Source: Escherichia phage AV122. Taken from it: a stretch of DNA of 64,000 nucleotides. The stretch lies in the sequence record OR352952.1; one strand, 5' to 3'. Under the pieces are notes generated by a model, which was not told the origin of the DNA, made no database searches, and saw nothing but the letters and a program-made list of their open reading frames with translations. Positions 1 to 52,881 of the stretch are shown here, piece by piece (the stretch's first letter is position 1; each line of letters opens with the position of its first letter). The position numbers and the translations under genes are program-made.

Positions 1-88
1 ACATGAGCATTTAGGTGGTGAATTCCCTGCATGGCCTGAAAAAGAACAGAAGCCTTGGTATAAGCGTTTATTCAAGCATTACGTATAA
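1..88 (+). CDS. 38: 3' end of upstream late gene (gene 38-like tail fibre adhesin/assembly protein); start lies outside window
   Basis: Open frame from nt 2 to TAA at 86-88 (...EFPAWPEKEQKPWYKRLFKHYV*); lies directly upstream of holin t as in T-even phages. Identity from synteny only. Confidence 0.4.
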   Translation, partial: HEHLGGEFPAWPEKEQKPWYKRLFKHYV

Positions 89-91
89 ATA
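84..91 (+). promoter_or_regulatory. T4-type late promoter TATAAATA upstream of holin t
   Basis: Exact TATAAATA at 84-91, overlapping the TAA of the upstream ORF, followed by SD AAAGGAGGG and ATG at 109. Confidence 0.5.
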
Positions 92-108
92 TCTTAAAAG
101 GAGGGTCT

Positions 109-2521: not shown

Positions 2522-2847
2522 TTAAACCATCCTTTAATACGCTGCCACAAAGTTTTCTGTTGAGCTTTGTTGACGCCAATTGAGCGAATAACTGGTTGAG
2601 ATTCCTGGAATTCTTTATAATCAGCAAGGTAAATTTCGTAAGCTGCATCCGTAAATGAACTTATAGCTGCCATAAAATTATTGCGAATACCTACTGGAGC
2701 ATCTTTACTTTCACGAATAATCATGTATTTACCAGTCTTAATCTTTACAATAGTTCCAAGATAAGCTCCATGGTACCAAATATCCCAACCCTCTTGAGTA
2801 GGTTCTGCACAACGACGAAGTTCATTGACAATTTCTAACTTGTTCAT
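2518..2847 (-). CDS. hypothetical protein
   Basis: 109-aa ORF, ATGA-type overlap with downstream ORF. Confidence 0.6.
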
Positions 2848-2857
2848 TATTTATTCC

Positions 2858-3493
2858 TCACAGTTCAGATGCTACAGTGATTACAGCTTCAATGTTTTCT
2901 ACCGAGCGTTTAATGTCAAGATACACATTACCGTTTTTAGCGATTTTACATGACATTCCGATATCAGTAAATTTCTGAATATGATGTTCCATCATTTTGT
3001 ATCCAAAAATTCGCATATTTCCATTGTTGTTAATTTCAAAATTGCGAATTCCGTGAGTGCGTTTTTCTAAAATAGCGAGATAGTTACTGCGATAAGTTTC
3101 AACCTTTTTAAGAACAAATCCATTTTCATCTAAAAGTTTTAACATGAAGTCTTTATCTTCTTCCATATCAGAAGTAATCTCACGAGCTTTACGAGTTGCT
3201 CGTTTTTTCAGCAGTTCCGGAGCATTTTCTTGTGCGTATAAAGTTGCTGCATTTGAAATAATATCCTGAGCTTCACCAGTAATGATTAATCCATCACCAG
3301 ATTTCTCCACCAGGCCTTTTTTAATCAATACCCCAATATTACTATTAACTACTGCGTTACCTAAATCTGGATGCACCTCACGAACTTCTGCAGCTGTAAT
3401 GAAATCTTTCTTAGCAATAGTAATTAAAATCGCAGCAGTTTTTTCATTCAGAACATCGTTAGAAGCTTTGATGATGTAAGTTACTTTAGACAT
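2858..3493 (-). CDS. motA: middle-transcription activator MotA
   Basis: 211 aa, MSKVTYIIKASNDVLNEKTAAILITIAKKDF... matches T4 MotA as recalled; ATG verified at 3493. Confidence 0.92.
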   Translation of the reverse strand: MSKVTYIIKASNDVLNEKTAAILITIAKKDFITAAEVREVHPDLGNAVVNSNIGVLIKKGLVEKSGDGLIITGEAQDIISNAATLYAQENAPELLKKRATRKAREITSDMEEDKDFMLKLLDENGFVLKKVETYRSNYLAILEKRTHGIRNFEINNNGNMRIFGYKMMEHHIQKFTDIGMSCKIAKNGNVYLDIKRSVENIEAVITVASEL

Positions 3494-17590: not shown

Positions 17591-17847
17591 TAAATTTTCC
17601 TCGCTAAATCACGAATTTGGCCTACAGTATAGTCTTGAATATAAACTTTATTAATAGGCTCATCAATAAATTTTGCCATAGATTCAATATCTTTTTGCAT
17701 CTCTTCAAGACTGTATACTATCTTTAAAGCTTTTTCGCGAATAGTAACATTATCAGGTCCTGAATTTTCTTGAATGACAGCTTTAACATTTGCCATAAGA
17801 GATTTAAACTGGTACCAACTCAACTCAATCATTAATAATCGCCTCAT
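17590..17847 (-). CDS. hypothetical 85-aa protein, member of tandem paralog trio
   Basis: Similar length and sequence pattern to 17825-18085 (MRRLL.../MRKLF..., LEEMQKDIE/LEEIERDLI). Confidence 0.55.
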   Translation of the reverse strand: MRRLLMIELSWYQFKSLMANVKAVIQENSGPDNVTIREKALKIVYSLEEMQKDIESMAKFIDEPINKVYIQDYTVGQIRDLARKI

Positions 17848-18085
17848 AAAGATAGCTAATTTCGCCTAAAACGTAATCATTGATTGTAACAGTTTTCACT
17901 TCACCACAAAAGAATTCTAACGCAATTAAATCTCGTTCAATTTCTTCTAATTGAAGCATCAACTTACTAGATTCAATTTTTACAGTTTCACGATTTTTAC
18001 CATGAGCAATTTCATAAATTTCGCTAACTTTATCCTGAAGAAGATAAAACTGATCTTTAGTTATTTCCACGAATAGCTTCCTCAA
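17825..18085 (-). CDS. hypothetical 86-aa protein, member of tandem paralog trio
   Basis: See 17590-17847. Confidence 0.55.
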   Translation of the reverse strand: MRKLFVEITKDQFYLLQDKVSEIYEIAHGKNRETVKIESSKLMLQLEEIERDLIALEFFCGEVKTVTINDYVLGEISYLYEAIIND

Positions 18086-24525: not shown

Positions 24526-24735
24526 TTAAATTACATGATTATTTATAATAAATTCTCGCGGAACGTTAAAATATCCGATTTTAGTTAATATAACAACATC
24601 ACCGTTAATAATTACCGGAGAATAATCTTCTGGAGCATTAAATTTCCAATGGGCTCTAATATTATATCCATCAGAACCAAATGCTCGAGTAGCCGGTCTC
24701 CCGGCTTTTTGCCACGCGTAGAAATCAAATTTCAT
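24526..24735 (-). CDS. hypothetical protein
   Basis: 69-aa ORF. Confidence 0.5.
   Translation of the reverse strand: MKFDFYAWQKAGRPATRAFGSDGYNIRAHWKFNAPEDYSPVIINGDVVILTKIGYFNVPREFIINNHVI
24540..24547 (-). promoter_or_regulatory. T4-type late promoter TATAAATA upstream of soc
   Basis: Exact TATAAATA on minus strand about 30 nt upstream of soc ATG, within 3' end of upstream ORF. Confidence 0.5.
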
Positions 24736-24932
24736 TTTGAATGCTCTATAATTAATTTTAAGGCTTCTTCGCTGACAAAAATTTCGTCAGGACCTTCTTC
24801 TATAACCCAATCAACCATACGAAGTTGATTAGTTAAGAGCTCACATACGAGCTCCTTGTTATAATCTTTAAATAGCTGGTTAATACGTTTCTTATGGGCT
24901 TTCTTAAGCTGACGCTTATTTAAACGAGCCAT
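24732..24932 (-). CDS. hypothetical basic protein
   Basis: 66-aa ORF, Lys/Arg-rich N-terminus. Confidence 0.5.
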   Translation of the reverse strand: MARLNKRQLKKAHKKRINQLFKDYNKELVCELLTNQLRMVDWVIEEGPDEIFVSEEALKLIIEHSK

Positions 24933-25450
24933 TAATAACCTCGGTCTTGACGAGCGAAGTTTTCAGCATTTTTCAGGTAATAAAGTTTAAAGATTTCTTC
25001 AGCTGACATTCCAAGAGCAATAAATTTATTCATGAAAAAGTGAAATTGGTCAATCAGTTCAAATTTAATTTCAAGCTGATCTTCGGGAGATAAATCTTGA
25101 ATTTTCTTGGATTGCATTTCAGAATAACGTTTCTTCCAAGGTTTCCATACAGCAGAAGCTTCTTTTTCACCATTACTCATACCACCAAGAGAAGTATATA
25201 GTTCGCGAGTTTCATCTGCGATATAATCGTCTTGGTTTCGCAACCAAGCAAGAACTTCTCCTGCGGTTTCAAGTGAATCAGGATGACGATTTGTTTCTGG
25301 TTTATCATTAGCCAAACGAATCTGTAAATGCCGCTGCATATCAAGCATAACCTGCAGTGGGTCAATATTGTGCATAATATTCTCAGCATATGCACGATTT
25401 GCTTTATCAACACCTTCGATCAAATGAGCACATTCATTAAAGTAAGCCAT
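24932..25450 (-). CDS. 56: dCTP pyrophosphatase (dCTPase/dUTPase)
   Basis: Trimmed to ATG 25450 (MAYFNECAHLIEG...), 172 aa (T4 gp56 is 171 aa); the upstream hydrophobic extension in the track ORF is probably not translated. Confidence 0.85.
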   Translation of the reverse strand: MAYFNECAHLIEGVDKANRAYAENIMHNIDPLQVMLDMQRHLQIRLANDKPETNRHPDSLETAGEVLAWLRNQDDYIADETRELYTSLGGMSNGEKEASAVWKPWKKRYSEMQSKKIQDLSPEDQLEIKFELIDQFHFFMNKFIALGMSAEEIFKLYYLKNAENFARQDRGY

Positions 25451-25521
25451 TATTTTTCCTTTCAATTCATGGGTTAGTAGATTAATTATACAATAAATAT
25501 ATAAAGCAATAAGGAGGACAT

Positions 25522-25722
25522 ATGGTACAAAAATTAATGGCACTTGTTAATGCCATAAAAGGTAATAAAAAACGTATAGCTTTTACTATTTCTGCTATGG
25601 TAGGAATTTTACTCTGGAACTTTATTCTATCACCTGTTGCAATTGCGCATGGTATTAATATTCCAGTAGTTACTCTTGATACATTTGTAGATTTAGCATT
25701 TGCTTTAGTTGGGTTGATTTAA
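25522..25722 (+). CDS. small membrane protein on opposite strand (66 aa)
   Basis: Plus-strand ORF with strong SD AAGGAGG 4 nt before ATG; two hydrophobic helices; lies in the 56-61 intergenic space. Confidence 0.45.
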   Translation: MVQKLMALVNAIKGNKKRIAFTISAMVGILLWNFILSPVAIAHGINIPVVTLDTFVDLAFALVGLI

Positions 25723-26747
25723 ATCTTAGCATATTTAGATAGCCGCATTTTAGCCATCAACCCCTGGGCAATATTATTTTTCATATATTCCATAATTTGT
25801 TCAGGGGTTGCACCTTCCTTTCTAATCATATCATTGACATCTTTTGATTTCCAGGGAGATTTATCCCAAAACATAACCCTTTCTCCTGCATCAACTAATT
25901 TAGTCATTCGTTTGATAGTGTCAGGGTGACGAGGTTCATTATCTAAAACCCACACTCGTCTATCTTTAAATGGAACAACTTCTAGGTCTAATTGACCACC
26001 TGTAATAGCTATACCATTTTCAATAAAAAGTGAATCTATAGGTCCTTCTAGAACATATACATCACCATCTTTAACTCGTTCAACACCGTAAATTTTTGTT
26101 GCCTCAGGATAAGCTTTAATGGTGATATATTTTTGAGGAGCATCTTTCTTTAATGCACGTCCTTGAAAAGACTCAGCTTTTCCATTAGCATTATAAATTG
26201 GAATAACAAGACGAGGCTCAGAAATTTCCTTTTTGTATGTTCCCGGTGCTATGCTATTAACTAATTTAGGCCATTCGGTTGTAAACCAAAGATATTTCCA
26301 TTTATCCTTTGGAATACAACGAGCTTTTACATATTTTATAATTGGATGGTCTTCCGCCAGTTTATCTAATCTAACACATGACGGAAGAGATTTAATTATT
26401 TTCTTCTCAGGTTGCTTAGGAAGTTCTTTAGGTTTTTCTACTGGACGACTTTTACCTTTTTCTTTTCTTATTTCAAAGATATACTCACGATATAAATCGG
26501 GTTCAAACTCCTTTAAATATATTCCGATTGGTGCATGATAGTTACAGTTATAACAATGAATATTTCCTTCATTGTTATCACCATAATACCATCCACGAGC
26601 TTTATTCTGGTCGGTTTTTGAATCTCCACAAACAGGACATCTAAACCGCAATTTAAAAGTTGAACTATTATTTACTTGTGTGAATTTAGGTAAATGAGCT
26701 AATGCACGGTATGCAAACTCATTATCAATCCAAGGTATTGATGACAT
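25719..26747 (-). CDS. 61: DNA primase
   Basis: 342 aa (same as T4 gp61); N-terminal zinc ribbon CPVCGDS...CYNC plus TOPRIM core. Confidence 0.9.
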   Translation of the reverse strand: MSSIPWIDNEFAYRALAHLPKFTQVNNSSTFKLRFRCPVCGDSKTDQNKARGWYYGDNNEGNIHCYNCNYHAPIGIYLKEFEPDLYREYIFEIRKEKGKSRPVEKPKELPKQPEKKIIKSLPSCVRLDKLAEDHPIIKYVKARCIPKDKWKYLWFTTEWPKLVNSIAPGTYKKEISEPRLVIPIYNANGKAESFQGRALKKDAPQKYITIKAYPEATKIYGVERVKDGDVYVLEGPIDSLFIENGIAITGGQLDLEVVPFKDRRVWVLDNEPRHPDTIKRMTKLVDAGERVMFWDKSPWKSKDVNDMIRKEGATPEQIMEYMKNNIAQGLMAKMRLSKYAKI

Positions 26748-26914: not shown

Positions 26915-26960
26915 ATTAACCTCTATTCATAAAAGCATTAAAAATTTGGTCATCAATAGA
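26913..26960. repeat. 48-bp direct repeat, copy A (gene-junction repeat)
   Basis: 45/48 identical to 27271-27318; covers start codon, intergenic base(s), stop and last 14 codons (...DDQIFNAFMNRG). Confidence 0.85.
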
Positions 26961-27272
26961 TGGCGCAGTAATATTTTCTGCATCATTTAGCAAATCATTA
27001 ATTTCATCAGATAGCATAACACATGTACCTTTATTTCCTGTAATTGTTACTGCACAATTACGAACGTTTTCTTTATCAAATTTTAGGTTAATATTTTCGT
27101 AGTGAAAATCCTTTAATGCCGAATATATCTTTAAAATGAAATTGTCTTTTACTACAATAAACCCAACCTCACTATTAAAACGCGGTTCATGGAAACTGTA
27201 ATAAACCTTTTCATCTATAAAATCGTATGAAATTTTTTCCATTTTTAAATATGAAAATTCAGAACTATACAT
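26916..27272 (-). CDS. hypothetical protein, partial paralog of 27274-27900
   Basis: 118 aa; VGFIVVKDNFILKIY... and C-terminal SIDDQIFNAFMNRG align with the C-terminal half of the upstream 208-aa protein. Confidence 0.55.
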   Translation of the reverse strand: MYSSEFSYLKMEKISYDFIDEKVYYSFHEPRFNSEVGFIVVKDNFILKIYSALKDFHYENINLKFDKENVRNCAVTITGNKGTCVMLSDEINDLLNDAENITAPSIDDQIFNAFMNRG

Positions 27273-27318
27273 ATTAACCTTTATTCATAAAAGCATTAAA
27301 AATTTGATCGTCAATAGA
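27271..27318. repeat. 48-bp direct repeat, copy B
   Basis: See 26913-26960. Confidence 0.85.
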
Positions 27319-27900
27319 AACTTTTACTTTAGGCTGTTCTTCAAACGGTAATTCATATCCACATATTACAATTTTGTGATCGATACCAAAATACACAGAA
27401 GCAATATTATTAATATTATTTTCAGTGAAATCTAAATCAACATCAATATCTTTTTGACCACAGCCCAAAGGATAAATAATGCGAGTAATTCGATTATCTT
27501 TAACAAATATTCCACCGACATACTCTGTGCTGCGTTTAAAGTCTACACGCCGACGAAATGAAAAATATTCAGGCTCTTTATGAGCTCGGCTCATAGGACA
27601 CAACGAGTAACTAGAATAAGAGATGTCAAATCCTACACCTTCGATATGAGCCAAAGTGTCATGATTAAACCAATTATAATCGTACGCCAAATCCATTAGA
27701 TTATAATATGTAAAAGGCACCGGATTAACATCATTAGTCACAAGCATGTAATTAGCAACTGCTATAATTTCATTGTTTTTAACGAATACAAACCGTGATT
27801 GATGCGAATGACCTGGACCCGCGTTTTCACGATTAATGATATAACACTGGGCACCTTTATATTTGTATGTATCTTTGCACTTGTGCATTTGATAGAGCAT
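27274..27900 (-). CDS. hypothetical protein (208 aa)
   Basis: 208-aa ORF; C-terminal half duplicated in the downstream 118-aa ORF. Confidence 0.6.
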   Translation of the reverse strand: MLYQMHKCKDTYKYKGAQCYIINRENAGPGHSHQSRFVFVKNNEIIAVANYMLVTNDVNPVPFTYYNLMDLAYDYNWFNHDTLAHIEGVGFDISYSSYSLCPMSRAHKEPEYFSFRRRVDFKRSTEYVGGIFVKDNRITRIIYPLGCGQKDIDVDLDFTENNINNIASVYFGIDHKIVICGYELPFEEQPKVKVSIDDQIFNAFMNKG

Positions 27901-30190: not shown

Positions 30191-30547
30191 TTAAAAGAAT
30201 TTAAACTTTTTCTTTGATCTTTTATTAAATGCATCTTGTAGTTGCATTGTAATACATTTTTCTACATGAGGAGCTAACTCAGCTTTTCTTTCTTGGTCAA
30301 GAACAGCAAAGTCCATTACGACTTTTCCATCAACCCAATCTAATTTTGTCACATACACAATGTGTGTAGAACCATCTTCTAGTTTAATGACAATCTCCTG
30401 GATAACATTTTCCATGGCAGATTTAATTATCTTAAGAGATTCATTAAAAAGACGTTCTTTTCTTTCTTCTTCCCCCTCCGAAGAGGGGGATTCATCGATA
30501 ATTTCTAGATCTAAATCATCTTTATTCATTAAATTCTTCCATATCAC
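30191..30547 (-). CDS. 40: gp40-like protein (head assembly) by position
   Basis: 118-aa acidic ORF between uvsX and 41; start may be the internal MNKDD. Confidence 0.5.
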   Translation of the reverse strand: MIWKNLMNKDDLDLEIIDESPSSEGEEERKERLFNESLKIIKSAMENVIQEIVIKLEDGSTHIVYVTKLDWVDGKVVMDFAVLDQERKAELAPHVEKCITMQLQDAFNKRSKKKFKFF

Positions 30548-40666: not shown

Positions 40667-40855
40667 TTAGTCATAATAATCAGTAACAGTCCAAGCTTCA
40701 TTTCTATTGGACATTATTTTTGTATATTCTGATTTAAATGCATTCCTAAGCATAGATTCAGTAACTATATGCTCTTCATTAGAAAAATTATTTCTCAGAA
40801 TATATCGTTTTATTTCCGGAATAGTTAATAGATGCTGTCCAGTTGAATATTCCAT
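40667..40855 (-). CDS. hypothetical protein
   Basis: 62-aa ORF. Confidence 0.5.
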   Translation of the reverse strand: MEYSTGQHLLTIPEIKRYILRNNFSNEEHIVTESMLRNAFKSEYTKIMSNRNEAWTVTDYYD

Positions 40856-40910
40856 GTTTTTCCTCCATAGAGATTATACTCTAATAAATTAAAGCATAAT
40901 CTCTTATAAA

Positions 40911-42593
40911 TTAAACCATTACAGTAAATCGACCAACTTTCTTCATTTGAAGATGCTGACCGTATTCTTGCGGGTCATGGTCTTTATGCGAAATTATAAA
41001 AACATTAGTGTTTTTCATTGAATTTATAATATTAGCTACACCTTTAATACCTTCAGCATCAAATGACCCGTCAAACACTTCATCGAGTATTAATGTACTA
41101 ATACTAACACCAGATACAATAGAAGCAATATCACGCCAAGTAAATAAAAGAGCAATATCAATTCGCGCTTTTTCACCTTCACTAAATGAAGCATAACTAA
41201 AATCTTCGCGACCGCGGGATTTAATTGTCTCATTAAATTCTTCATCTAATGTAAACACATAATCCGCTTCCATTATTTTAAGATAATGGTTAATCTGCTT
41301 ATTGAATAATGGAATGTACTTTTTAATAATAGCACCTTTAATACCAGAATCTTTGAGCATATCAGTCAAAATTCCTCTATGGTATTTTTCCATTACTAAA
41401 TTAGTTTTTGTCTTAACAATTTTATCAAGTTCTTCTTGAAGCAGTGCTATTTCATCAGCATGGTCAATAAACTCGGATGATGCTTTTTCTATAGCTGCTT
41501 TAACTTTTTTAGCTTTATCTACTGTCGTGATTAGAGATTGCTTTTTATTGCGAATATCATTTGCCAATGATTGTTGAGTTTTAATATTATCTCGGTATTC
41601 ATCAACAAGAACTTTTAAATTATCACGATGTGTTGAAAGCTGTTCAAATGAATGCGTACATTCAGAAACTTTATCTTTAATTTTAGAAACAACTTTATCA
41701 CCGGAACTTAATTGTGACAAACAGGTTGGACATAATCCACCTTCGTGATACATATTAATGACTTTATTATATGAGTCAATTTTTGATTTAATTAAAACTG
41801 CTTCTTGACCGATTTTATTAAATGCATCAGTCGGGTCTTCATCCAAAACAATATTAACTAATCTTTCATTAGCTTCTTCTATTTCCGATTTTAGCGTTCT
41901 AGCTTCTTTTGCCAAATCATCGTACATATTTTGCAGACGAGTAAGGTTGTCACCCGTTAATTTTTTCTGGCGTTCAACGTTATCATTATATATTTTAATT
42001 TGTTGGATAATACTATCTTTTTTAACATCAAGCACTTGGTTTTGTGAATTTAATTCACGTATTAGCGCTTTATTAAGCTTATCCATTTCAGCTAATGTTC
42101 CTACCTCAAGCAGGTCTTCCACAAGCTTTCTTCGTGCAGGGGTCGACAAACCCATGAAAGGGGTATACCCTGCTGTACCAAGGACAACAATCTGCTTGAA
42201 ACTGGCATATGACATTCCGATAAGCTGTTCAAATTCTGCTTGGAAATCTTTACTGCTGGCAGATTCATTAAGACGTGTACCGTTAACGGTGATTTCGAAA
42301 ACGTTTGGTTTTTGTCCTCTTTTGATATAGTACTTTTTCTCATCATATTCCATCCACAGTTCAACTAAAAGTTCTTTCTTATTTGTGCTGTTTATTAATT
42401 GACCTTTCTTTACATCACGAAATGGTTTGCCAAAAAGCCCAAATGTGATGGCTTCTAACATAGTAGACTTACCACCGCCATTTCGGCCAGTAATAAGAGT
42501 TTTTTGAACCTTATCTAATTGAATGTCAATAGGATTTCCACCTACTGACATTATATTTTGATACCTAACTCGGTTTAGTTTAAAATTCTTCAC
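40911..42593 (-). CDS. 46: recombination nuclease ATPase subunit (Rad50/SbcC-like)
   Basis: 560 aa (same as T4 gp46); Walker A GRNGGGKST, long coiled coil, signature/D-loop at C-terminus. Confidence 0.9.
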   Translation of the reverse strand: MKNFKLNRVRYQNIMSVGGNPIDIQLDKVQKTLITGRNGGGKSTMLEAITFGLFGKPFRDVKKGQLINSTNKKELLVELWMEYDEKKYYIKRGQKPNVFEITVNGTRLNESASSKDFQAEFEQLIGMSYASFKQIVVLGTAGYTPFMGLSTPARRKLVEDLLEVGTLAEMDKLNKALIRELNSQNQVLDVKKDSIIQQIKIYNDNVERQKKLTGDNLTRLQNMYDDLAKEARTLKSEIEEANERLVNIVLDEDPTDAFNKIGQEAVLIKSKIDSYNKVINMYHEGGLCPTCLSQLSSGDKVVSKIKDKVSECTHSFEQLSTHRDNLKVLVDEYRDNIKTQQSLANDIRNKKQSLITTVDKAKKVKAAIEKASSEFIDHADEIALLQEELDKIVKTKTNLVMEKYHRGILTDMLKDSGIKGAIIKKYIPLFNKQINHYLKIMEADYVFTLDEEFNETIKSRGREDFSYASFSEGEKARIDIALLFTWRDIASIVSGVSISTLILDEVFDGSFDAEGIKGVANIINSMKNTNVFIISHKDHDPQEYGQHLQMKKVGRFTVMV

Positions 42594-44056: not shown

Positions 44057-44657
44057 GGTGTCTTTTCCATCCTAATTTAGCTGCTTTTGAAACCAGTTCT
44101 TTAATTTTTCCTTTTGTCCATTCAGGACCAGGAGGTTCATGACATAACATTTGCTTAACTCCGTTATTATACCATTTTTTACCTTTATTATGTGATGAAG
44201 CTTTAAATTTATTTGACCTTCCTTTTACATAACCTTCTGGAATATAAGGCAAAAAGGCAGATTTTCCTGTTAATGGATCATGTGAATGTATATTTCCTTT
44301 ACAATTATGAGAACCATATAATGGATGATTTTGTCCTTTATTATCTCTTCCAAATGAACCTTTTGGAGCAGCATATGACATATTAAAGAATAATGGATTT
44401 TTAACTGCATCATGCAATCGTTGATAATATAACTCGCATTTAATAGCTTCTTCACGCGTATCAAATTCAGCTAAAATGCATGAATCAAATAAGTGAGGAT
44501 TATCTGAAAGCTCTTTATTATAAATTTTCTTATACTTTTTAGATAAAACTGAACCATGATATCCAGCTAAATGCCTATCTAAAGACGTAGATCCAATATA
44601 AAAAGGAGGAAGTTTATCTCCGCTATATATTGTTAAATAAGTTATATATTTTTTCAT
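44034..44657 (-). CDS. GIY-YIG homing-endonuclease-like protein
   Basis: 207 aa; TIY...(8)...FYIGST...R...CILAEFDTREEAIKCE... parallels I-TevI GIY...YVGSA...CSILEEIPYEKDLIIERENFWIKE; also a G-x-NHP-x-YG motif as in Seg proteins. 3' end overlaps gene 47 start. Confidence 0.6.
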   Translation of the reverse strand: MKKYITYLTIYSGDKLPPFYIGSTSLDRHLAGYHGSVLSKKYKKIYNKELSDNPHLFDSCILAEFDTREEAIKCELYYQRLHDAVKNPLFFNMSYAAPKGSFGRDNKGQNHPLYGSHNCKGNIHSHDPLTGKSAFLPYIPEGYVKGRSNKFKASSHNKGKKWYNNGVKQMLCHEPPGPEWTKGKIKELVSKAAKLGWKRHHENTKLG

Positions 44658-52832: not shown

Positions 52833-52881
52833 AATAAAATCCTTACCTTAAATAGATAAGGGTATTTATTATTTTCAAGTA

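Follow-up and report, generated by a model that had tools for sequence, protein, structure and literature searches.

In Escherichia phage AV122 (OR352952.1), a short open reading frame lies between genes 56 and 61 on the strand opposite to its neighbours, raising the question of whether it is a gene and, if so, when it is expressed and what its product does. Within the window, i.e., the whole stretch of 64,000 nucleotides analysed here, the ORF listing places this micro-ORF at 25522–25722 (+), with an ATG start, 66 codons and the stop codon included in these coordinates. A Shine-Dalgarno (SD) sequence, AAGGAGG, is located at 25511–25517 (+), 4 nt 5' of the ATG. Both elements had been pointed out in a first-pass annotation of this DNA, and both were confirmed. 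The micro-ORF is flanked by gene 56, encoding dCTPase (24932–25450, −), and by the primase gene 61 (25719–26747, −), and the tetranucleotide TTAA at 25719–25722 contains the convergent stops of both the micro-ORF (TAA, plus strand) and gene 61 (TAA, minus strand). Beyond these two genes lie 61.1, 61.2, spackle, 61.4/tifA, dmd and the helicase gene 41, all on the minus strand.

Positions 25300–25950 of the window are 100% identical to several Tequatrovirus phages, e.g., vB_Eco_NR1, and 510 phage records match this segment by megablast. In the near-identical phage NR1, the micro-ORF carries a CDS annotation. The record of this phage also bears out the opposite-strand setting proposed earlier: over ~50 kb of it, there is only one other plus-strand CDS (40703–41419) besides the tail-fibre gene and the holin gene t at the left end of the window. 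The suspicion that the long N-terminal extension of the gene 56 ORF is not translated proved correct as well. The true start of gene 56 is at 25450, giving a product of 172 aa compared to 171 aa in T4, and the GTG-extended ORF of 203 aa reaching up to 25543 is therefore an artefact. In shuffles of the 272-nt stretch with the same composition, an ATG-initiated ORF of at least 66 codons arose in only 0.6–0.9% of cases; the comparative evidence for the micro-ORF is far stronger than this statistic.

The protein matches the profile phrog_2024 over practically its full length (E 1.4e-31; residues 2–66 against profile positions 1–65 of 65), a family that PHROG labels as 'unknown function' and that is also matched by the copies in Mosigvirus and Kanagawavirus. 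By tblastn, homologues were found in 696 phage records, 686 of which cover at least 80% of the micro-protein. Its identity is >90% within Tequatrovirus, about 50–55% with Mosigvirus and Gaprivervirus, 33–39% with Kanagawavirus, and 25–29% with Gelderlandvirus and Jiaodavirus. Homologues appear in older records as RB69ORF029w and RB32ORF030w, in the Gelderlandvirus phage S16 as gp16.1 and in Jiaodavirus as KpV477_031. The exact protein of the window occurs on 259 contigs and is called 'hypothetical protein' in every source. The window copy is thus an ordinary member of an already catalogued family of hypothetical genes: it shares with RB69ORF029w, RB32ORF030w and S16 gp16.1 the full-length profile, the position, the orientation and the W-N-[F/Y]...P...G core, and differs from them in nothing essential.

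The place and orientation of the gene are constant in the six Tevenvirinae genera that carry it, all infecting Enterobacteriaceae: it is encoded opposite to its neighbours, and its 3' end faces that of the primase gene 61. The 4-nt stop overlap with the primase gene recurs in Mosigvirus and Gelderlandvirus; in Kanagawavirus the two genes overlap by 24 nt, and in Jiaodavirus they are separated by 18 nt. Conservation of the ORF and its SD in related phages had been suggested as a check on the reality of the gene, and both are kept across the six genera: besides the essentially full-length coverage in most records, the ATG is retained in all six, and the SD core, (A)GGAGG or AAGGAG, occupies the same place in each of them.

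The pattern of substitutions is that of a protein-coding sequence. Within-genus pairs gave dN/dS values of 0.08–0.28 (Nei-Gojobori), with a single exception of 0.40 for T4 versus OE5505, and the sense frame, with values of 0.08–0.22, had the lowest dN/dS among the six frames in 6/6 pairs tested. Variable sites in Tequatrovirus are distributed over codon positions 1, 2 and 3 as 10, 2 and 16, and a deletion within the micro-ORF of phage OE5505 removes 9 nt in frame. Between genera, synonymous sites are saturated, yet the core amino-acid motif persists. Within genera, values nearly as low are obtained for the antisense frame with shared wobble positions (dN/dS 0.15–0.43), and the frame assignment therefore rests mainly on the between-genus data, the start codon and the SD. 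On this comparative evidence, the micro-ORF is a genuine gene, conserved and under purifying selection.

The gene was not found at this position, where positional analogues were sought, in Winklervirus, Krischvirus, Slopekvirus or Biquartavirus. This makes it an accessory gene of T-even-type phages (Tevenvirinae) rather than part of the T4 core, and one dispensable for the basic T4-type life cycle. No bacterial homologues were detected, every match being on a phage-sized contig or a short fragment, and an exhaustive profile search of 1.84 billion representatives returned only about four clusters at 50% identity, all from T4-like phages. Pfam and NCBIfam gave no match up to E = 10. A sequence search of the PDB and a fold search of BFVD yielded nothing credible outside the family, the sole significant fold match being a family member labelled 'Holin'. 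Searching the family profile against the six-frame translation of the window, imm included, revealed no paralogues; the same comparison, with imm placed by homology with the NR1 record, found no relatedness to the T4 superinfection-immunity protein Imm. Text searches of the literature found no paper naming RB69ORF029w, RB32ORF030w or the family, and the locus is not mentioned in the text of the CRISPRi-ART and HIDEN-SEQ papers.

The sequence just upstream of the gene suggests when it is expressed. A candidate gp55-dependent late promoter box, AATAAATA, lies at 25492–25499 (+), with a predicted transcription start near 25505. The T4 late promoter consists of TATAAATA at −13 to −6 without a −35 element (PMC2988020), and the box in the window matches it at 7/8 positions, carrying A instead of T at −13. 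This is the commonest late-promoter variant, found in 9/50 listed T4 sites (PMC2988020), and T at −13 is poorly conserved among T4 relatives (PMC1524935). In five of the six genera (Tequatro-, Mosig-, Gapriver-, Kanagawa- and Jiaodavirus), the heptamer ATAAATA is found 16–22 nt 5' of the ATG. Farther upstream the sequence is unrelated, and the neighbouring gene varies: it is gene 56 in the window, dam in T4, and in other phages a homing endonuclease gene or a different one. What is conserved is thus a block composed of NATAAATA, 7–13 nt, the (A)GGAGG or AAGGAG core, 4–7 nt and the ATG. The box reads AATAAATA in Mosigvirus and Jiaodavirus as in the window, CATAAATA in Gaprivervirus, and the perfect TATAAATA in Kanagawavirus. 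In T4 it is GATAAATA, with a G at −13, a deviation rarer than A, and in Salmonella phage S16 it is degenerate (TATTAAATA).

Such boxes are scarce in this DNA. ATAAATA is depleted ~6-fold in the window, with 7 occurrences where 40 would be expected, and TATAAATA is present at two sites instead of the 10 expected; this depletion fits selection against stray late promoters in the early-gene region. The seven ATAAATA sites are at 85–91 (+), 230–236 (−), 2848–2854 (−), 24540–24546 (−), 25493–25499 (+), 27472–27478 (+) and 52863–52869 (−). The two perfect TATAAATA boxes precede soc (24547–24540, minus strand) and holin t (84–91, plus strand), both of which are established late genes. In gene t, the layout is TATAAATA, 7 nt, AAGGAGG, 4 nt and ATG, and the combination of box, AAGGAGG and ATG occurs at only two places in the 64 kb, namely gene t and the micro-ORF. 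The micro-ORF thus shares with these T4 late genes with a minimal gp55 promoter the [T/A]ATAAATA box, an AT-rich spacer, a strong SD and an ATG, at a box-to-ATG distance of 22 nt compared to 18 nt for t and 30 nt for soc. It differs from them in the A for T at −13, and in that its late status is a prediction of the present analysis. As a separate observation, AAGGAGG is present three times on the plus strand of the window (98–104, 25511–25517 and 44603–44609) and not at all on the minus strand, though nearly all genes are on the latter; two of the copies serve holin t and the micro-ORF with an identical 4-nt spacer, and no start codon follows the copy at 44603.

Other sources of plus-strand transcription were considered. 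A promoter scan found no sigma-70-like promoter on the plus strand upstream of the micro-ORF, and inspection by eye of the T4 and window upstream sequences revealed no MotA box at the right spacing; a sigma-70 or MotA-type plus-strand promoter was accordingly rejected. In T4, early and middle transcripts are all of the other polarity, and late transcripts are the only ones known to have the polarity of the micro-ORF, i.e., to come from either strand (PMC2988020). The in silico list of late promoters of RB69 (Nolan et al. 2006, additional file 5) contains no site near RB69 16,030 (+), upstream of RB69ORF029w. A dRNA-seq study of T4 gives 150 start sites, 22 of them antisense (bioRxiv 10.1101/2024.04.04.588121). 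On balance, we regard late, gp55-dependent transcription of the micro-ORF as quite likely. RNA polymerase with gp55 would start ~6 nt after AATAAATA, giving a leader of ~17 nt with a strong SD, as in gene t, and a late-gene status would explain why the gene lies on the strand opposite to the surrounding early genes.

The encoded product had been described as a two-helix hydrophobic peptide. Its hydrophobic, membrane-type character is upheld, but only one of its helices is of transmembrane (TM) length. Hydropathy shows one strong hydrophobic span at residues 19–41, preceded by KGNKKR. The AlphaFold2 model (24-sequence alignment, mean pLDDT 78) has helices at residues 2–12, 16–42 and 52–63, with a loop at 43–51. 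The TM-length helix (codons 16–42; 25567–25647, +) contains the invariant residues W32-N33-F34 and P38, with Tyr in place of Phe in part of the family according to the W-N-[F/Y] core; in the alignment of 24 sequences W32, N33, P38 and G44 are invariant, and P48, G64 and an acidic residue at position 53 nearly so. Codons 43–66 (25648–25719, +) encode a probable periplasmic tail comprising the loop HGINIPVVT and the short, acidic and amphipathic helix 52–63. This C-terminal segment, which ends in ...DLAFALVGLI, is less hydrophobic, forms a helix of only 12 residues with two conserved acidic positions, and in Gelderlandvirus and Jiaodavirus is shorter, still less hydrophobic and interrupted by Lys or His. 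Since the C-terminal helix is short, acidic and weaker in distant homologues, the model and alignment point to a single membrane span and not to a two-span hairpin. One TM was likewise predicted for RB69ORF029w, at residues 21–41 (Nolan et al. 2006, PMC1524935, supplement 2). The net charge is +5 before the TM helix and −2 after it, from which, by the positive-inside rule, we infer that the protein is probably oriented N-in/C-out.

Taken together, the most convincing explanation, and one that we hold to be likely as a whole, is that the micro-ORF is a real T-even accessory gene encoding a late-expressed, bitopic inner-membrane micro-protein. In this architecture, a protein of 63–69 residues would place a basic, amphipathic N-terminal helix in the cytoplasm, cross the membrane with a helix in which a mid-membrane W-N-[F/Y] triplet is followed five residues later by a proline, and expose a tail of ~24 residues, probably in the periplasm, with the motif (H/Y/Q)G-x2-(L/I/V)P-x3-(L/M)-(D/E). 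An Asn in the middle of a membrane helix is a classic driver of helix–helix association. As a working guess for its mode of action, the micro-protein may oligomerise through its W-N-[F/Y]...P helix, or use it to bind a phage or host membrane protein late in infection, possibly in the setting of envelope or lysis-timing functions. The T4 antiholin RI and holin T (type II, N-in/C-out) resemble it in general architecture only, i.e., in a single N-proximal helix, a probably periplasmic C-terminus and late expression, the last of which we infer for the micro-protein. On the other hand, no sequence or fold similarity to either was found, its periplasmic part of ~24 residues is not a folded domain, and it has no known genetic link to lysis.

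Among the specific roles offered in the first-pass annotation, i.e., a small membrane toxin, a holin-like peptide or a regulator, none gained support, although the broader claim of a small membrane protein encoded opposite to its neighbours did. On one view, the protein would act in lysis like a holin or pinholin, or regulate holin T directly, and in this way permeabilise or prime the inner membrane at a late stage of infection. This would agree with the size and hydrophobicity of class II holins, with a probable late promoter whose box, SD and ATG are laid out as in gene t, and with the type II topology found in T4 T, RI and i-spanin; the TM helix has a polar Asn that could contribute to the lining of a pore or promote oligomerisation, and one UniProt entry of the family is named 'Holin'. 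That name appears unsupported, as text searches found no paper on the family, and neither Pfam, NCBIfam nor PHROGs assigns the protein to a holin or toxin family, phrog_2024 being the sole significant PHROGs match. Holins typically carry a charged cytoplasmic C-terminal tail, whereas the C-terminus here is hydrophobic and acidic, without such a tail, and follows one TM-length helix, the second segment being the 12-residue one that Lys or His interrupts in Gelderlandvirus and Jiaodavirus. Besides, the phage already has holin t (110–766 of the window), and the gene is absent from related genera, all of which makes a holin function improbable. A type I toxin-like membrane peptide restrained by a complementary early transcript is more doubtful still, and we rate it as very unlikely. 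The product is indeed a small hydrophobic peptide, and if the gene 61 transcript ended at the hairpin at 25537–25556, its 3' end would be fully complementary to codons 6–66, but the ribosome-binding site is strong and exposed, with no fold-back leader, and neither a dedicated antitoxin promoter nor an antitoxin RNA was found; minus-strand promoter-like matches within the micro-ORF are weak (9/12) and no more numerous than in shuffles. The lack of bacterial homologues and the fixed position of a phage accessory gene also argue against it. Overall, the micro-protein is like class II holins and pinholins (e.g., phage 21 S68) and type I toxins (Hok, TisB) in its size of 60–70 aa and its overall hydrophobicity, and unlike them in having one TM-length helix and no charged tail, family match or antitoxin RNA.

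Two further readings shift the weight from the protein to the nucleic acid. The micro-ORF could be untranslated and owe its conservation to signals of the opposite strand, such as a primase 3' UTR or terminator, or promoter or origin elements upstream of gene 56. A terminator scan did detect a terminator-like hairpin with a T-run on the minus strand (25527–25556), within codons 2–12 of the micro-ORF, where transcription of gene 61 might end; the record of phage fPS-90 has a terminator and a middle promoter there, and the T4 reference annotation treats the stretch as intergenic. The hairpin is kept in T4 and other Tequatroviruses and not in the other genera, whereas the protein is. Read in phase with the primase stop, the antisense frame stays open over 65 codons, which could be taken to favour this explanation, but it is open because the protein has no Tyr and few His or Gln, i.e., as an effect of composition, and in Kanagawavirus it contains five stops; it also lacks a start codon, and a read-through extension of the primase was rejected for the same reasons. 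With amino-acid motifs that outlast the saturation of synonymous sites, second codon positions that vary least, an indel that is a multiple of three, and the ATG and SD maintained in all genera, it is hardly conceivable that the micro-ORF is not translated. Alternatively, the main product could be RNA: a late plus-strand transcript antisense to gene 61, and to genes beyond it, that helps to shut off early replication genes, the ORF being a secondary passenger or the transcript a dual-function leader. The terminator scan found no intrinsic terminator on the plus strand for 4.5 kb, the first being at 30268, and a late transcript would therefore run antisense through gene 61. The tail-to-tail arrangement with the primase stop is present in all genera, and T4 is known to have several sites at which the two strands are each transcribed, but not at the same time (PMC2988020). 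On the contrary, the protein sequence is under purifying selection, which shows that the peptide itself matters, and we consider RNA as the main product to be unlikely. This reading is compatible with the late-expressed membrane micro-protein and does not exclude it; the transcript that encodes the protein may also act as an antisense RNA to the primase mRNA.

These results also bear on T4, the best-studied phage. It has an intact micro-ORF at 17738–17938 of NC_000866, whose product differs from that of the window by two conservative residue changes. In the T4 records NC_000866 and AF158101, the interval from dam to gene 61 appears as a gap of 309 bp in which the micro-ORF is unannotated, and no NCBI accession for the T4 version of the micro-protein was found in the protein collection. 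The T4 reference annotation thus omits a conserved small membrane protein, though it is catalogued as a hypothetical protein in hundreds of relatives. Annotating the T4 copy would admit the gene to annotation-based screens, as the guide library of the CRISPRi-ART phage study targets annotated CDSs only. A bolder proposal, which we put forward as unlikely but worth stating, is that T4 harbours an unannotated late gene whose micro-protein, by oligomerising through the mid-membrane Asn or by binding a membrane protein of phage or host, tunes lysis timing, lysis inhibition or envelope integrity, while its run-on transcript silences the primase gene in antisense late in infection. If either lysis control or the antisense shut-off of primase were true, it would be a small addition to the late physiology of T4.

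Several minor observations were made in the window and its relatives. The space between gene 56 and the micro-ORF (25451–25521 of the window) is an insertion hot spot. It is empty in the window and contains dam in T4 and phage F1, and in other Tequatroviruses it accommodates either a homing endonuclease gene or a different hypothetical gene; among Tequatroviruses of the T4/dam type and those with the third type of content, homology resumes just 3–4 nt 5' of the ATAAATA box. In Escherichia phage 212, a fragment at 2529–2624 (−) of its locus, VPIAATQGVHLPQVTIEHIHSIIGYFTGIPS, lies 3' of a Gaprivervirus-type copy and resembles the C-terminal half of the Kanagawavirus-type protein, apparently as the remnant of a gene that was replaced through recombination. 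In Krischvirus KFS-EC, the 590-bp 'gap' between the primase and dUTPase genes holds an unannotated ORF of 187 aa on the primase strand (2544–3107, +, of the locus) with the HNH-like motif IDHIDGNPENN, and this ORF probably encodes a homing endonuclease. Finally, within the stretches 26916–27272 (−) and 27274–27900 (−) of the window, a gene of 118 aa adjoins 61.2 and shares with it the C-terminal motif (SIDDQIFNAFMN[RK]G). This gene is a partial duplicate of 61.2 that is absent from T4 and is annotated in RB51 as RB32ORF033c, 'similar to gp61.2'.
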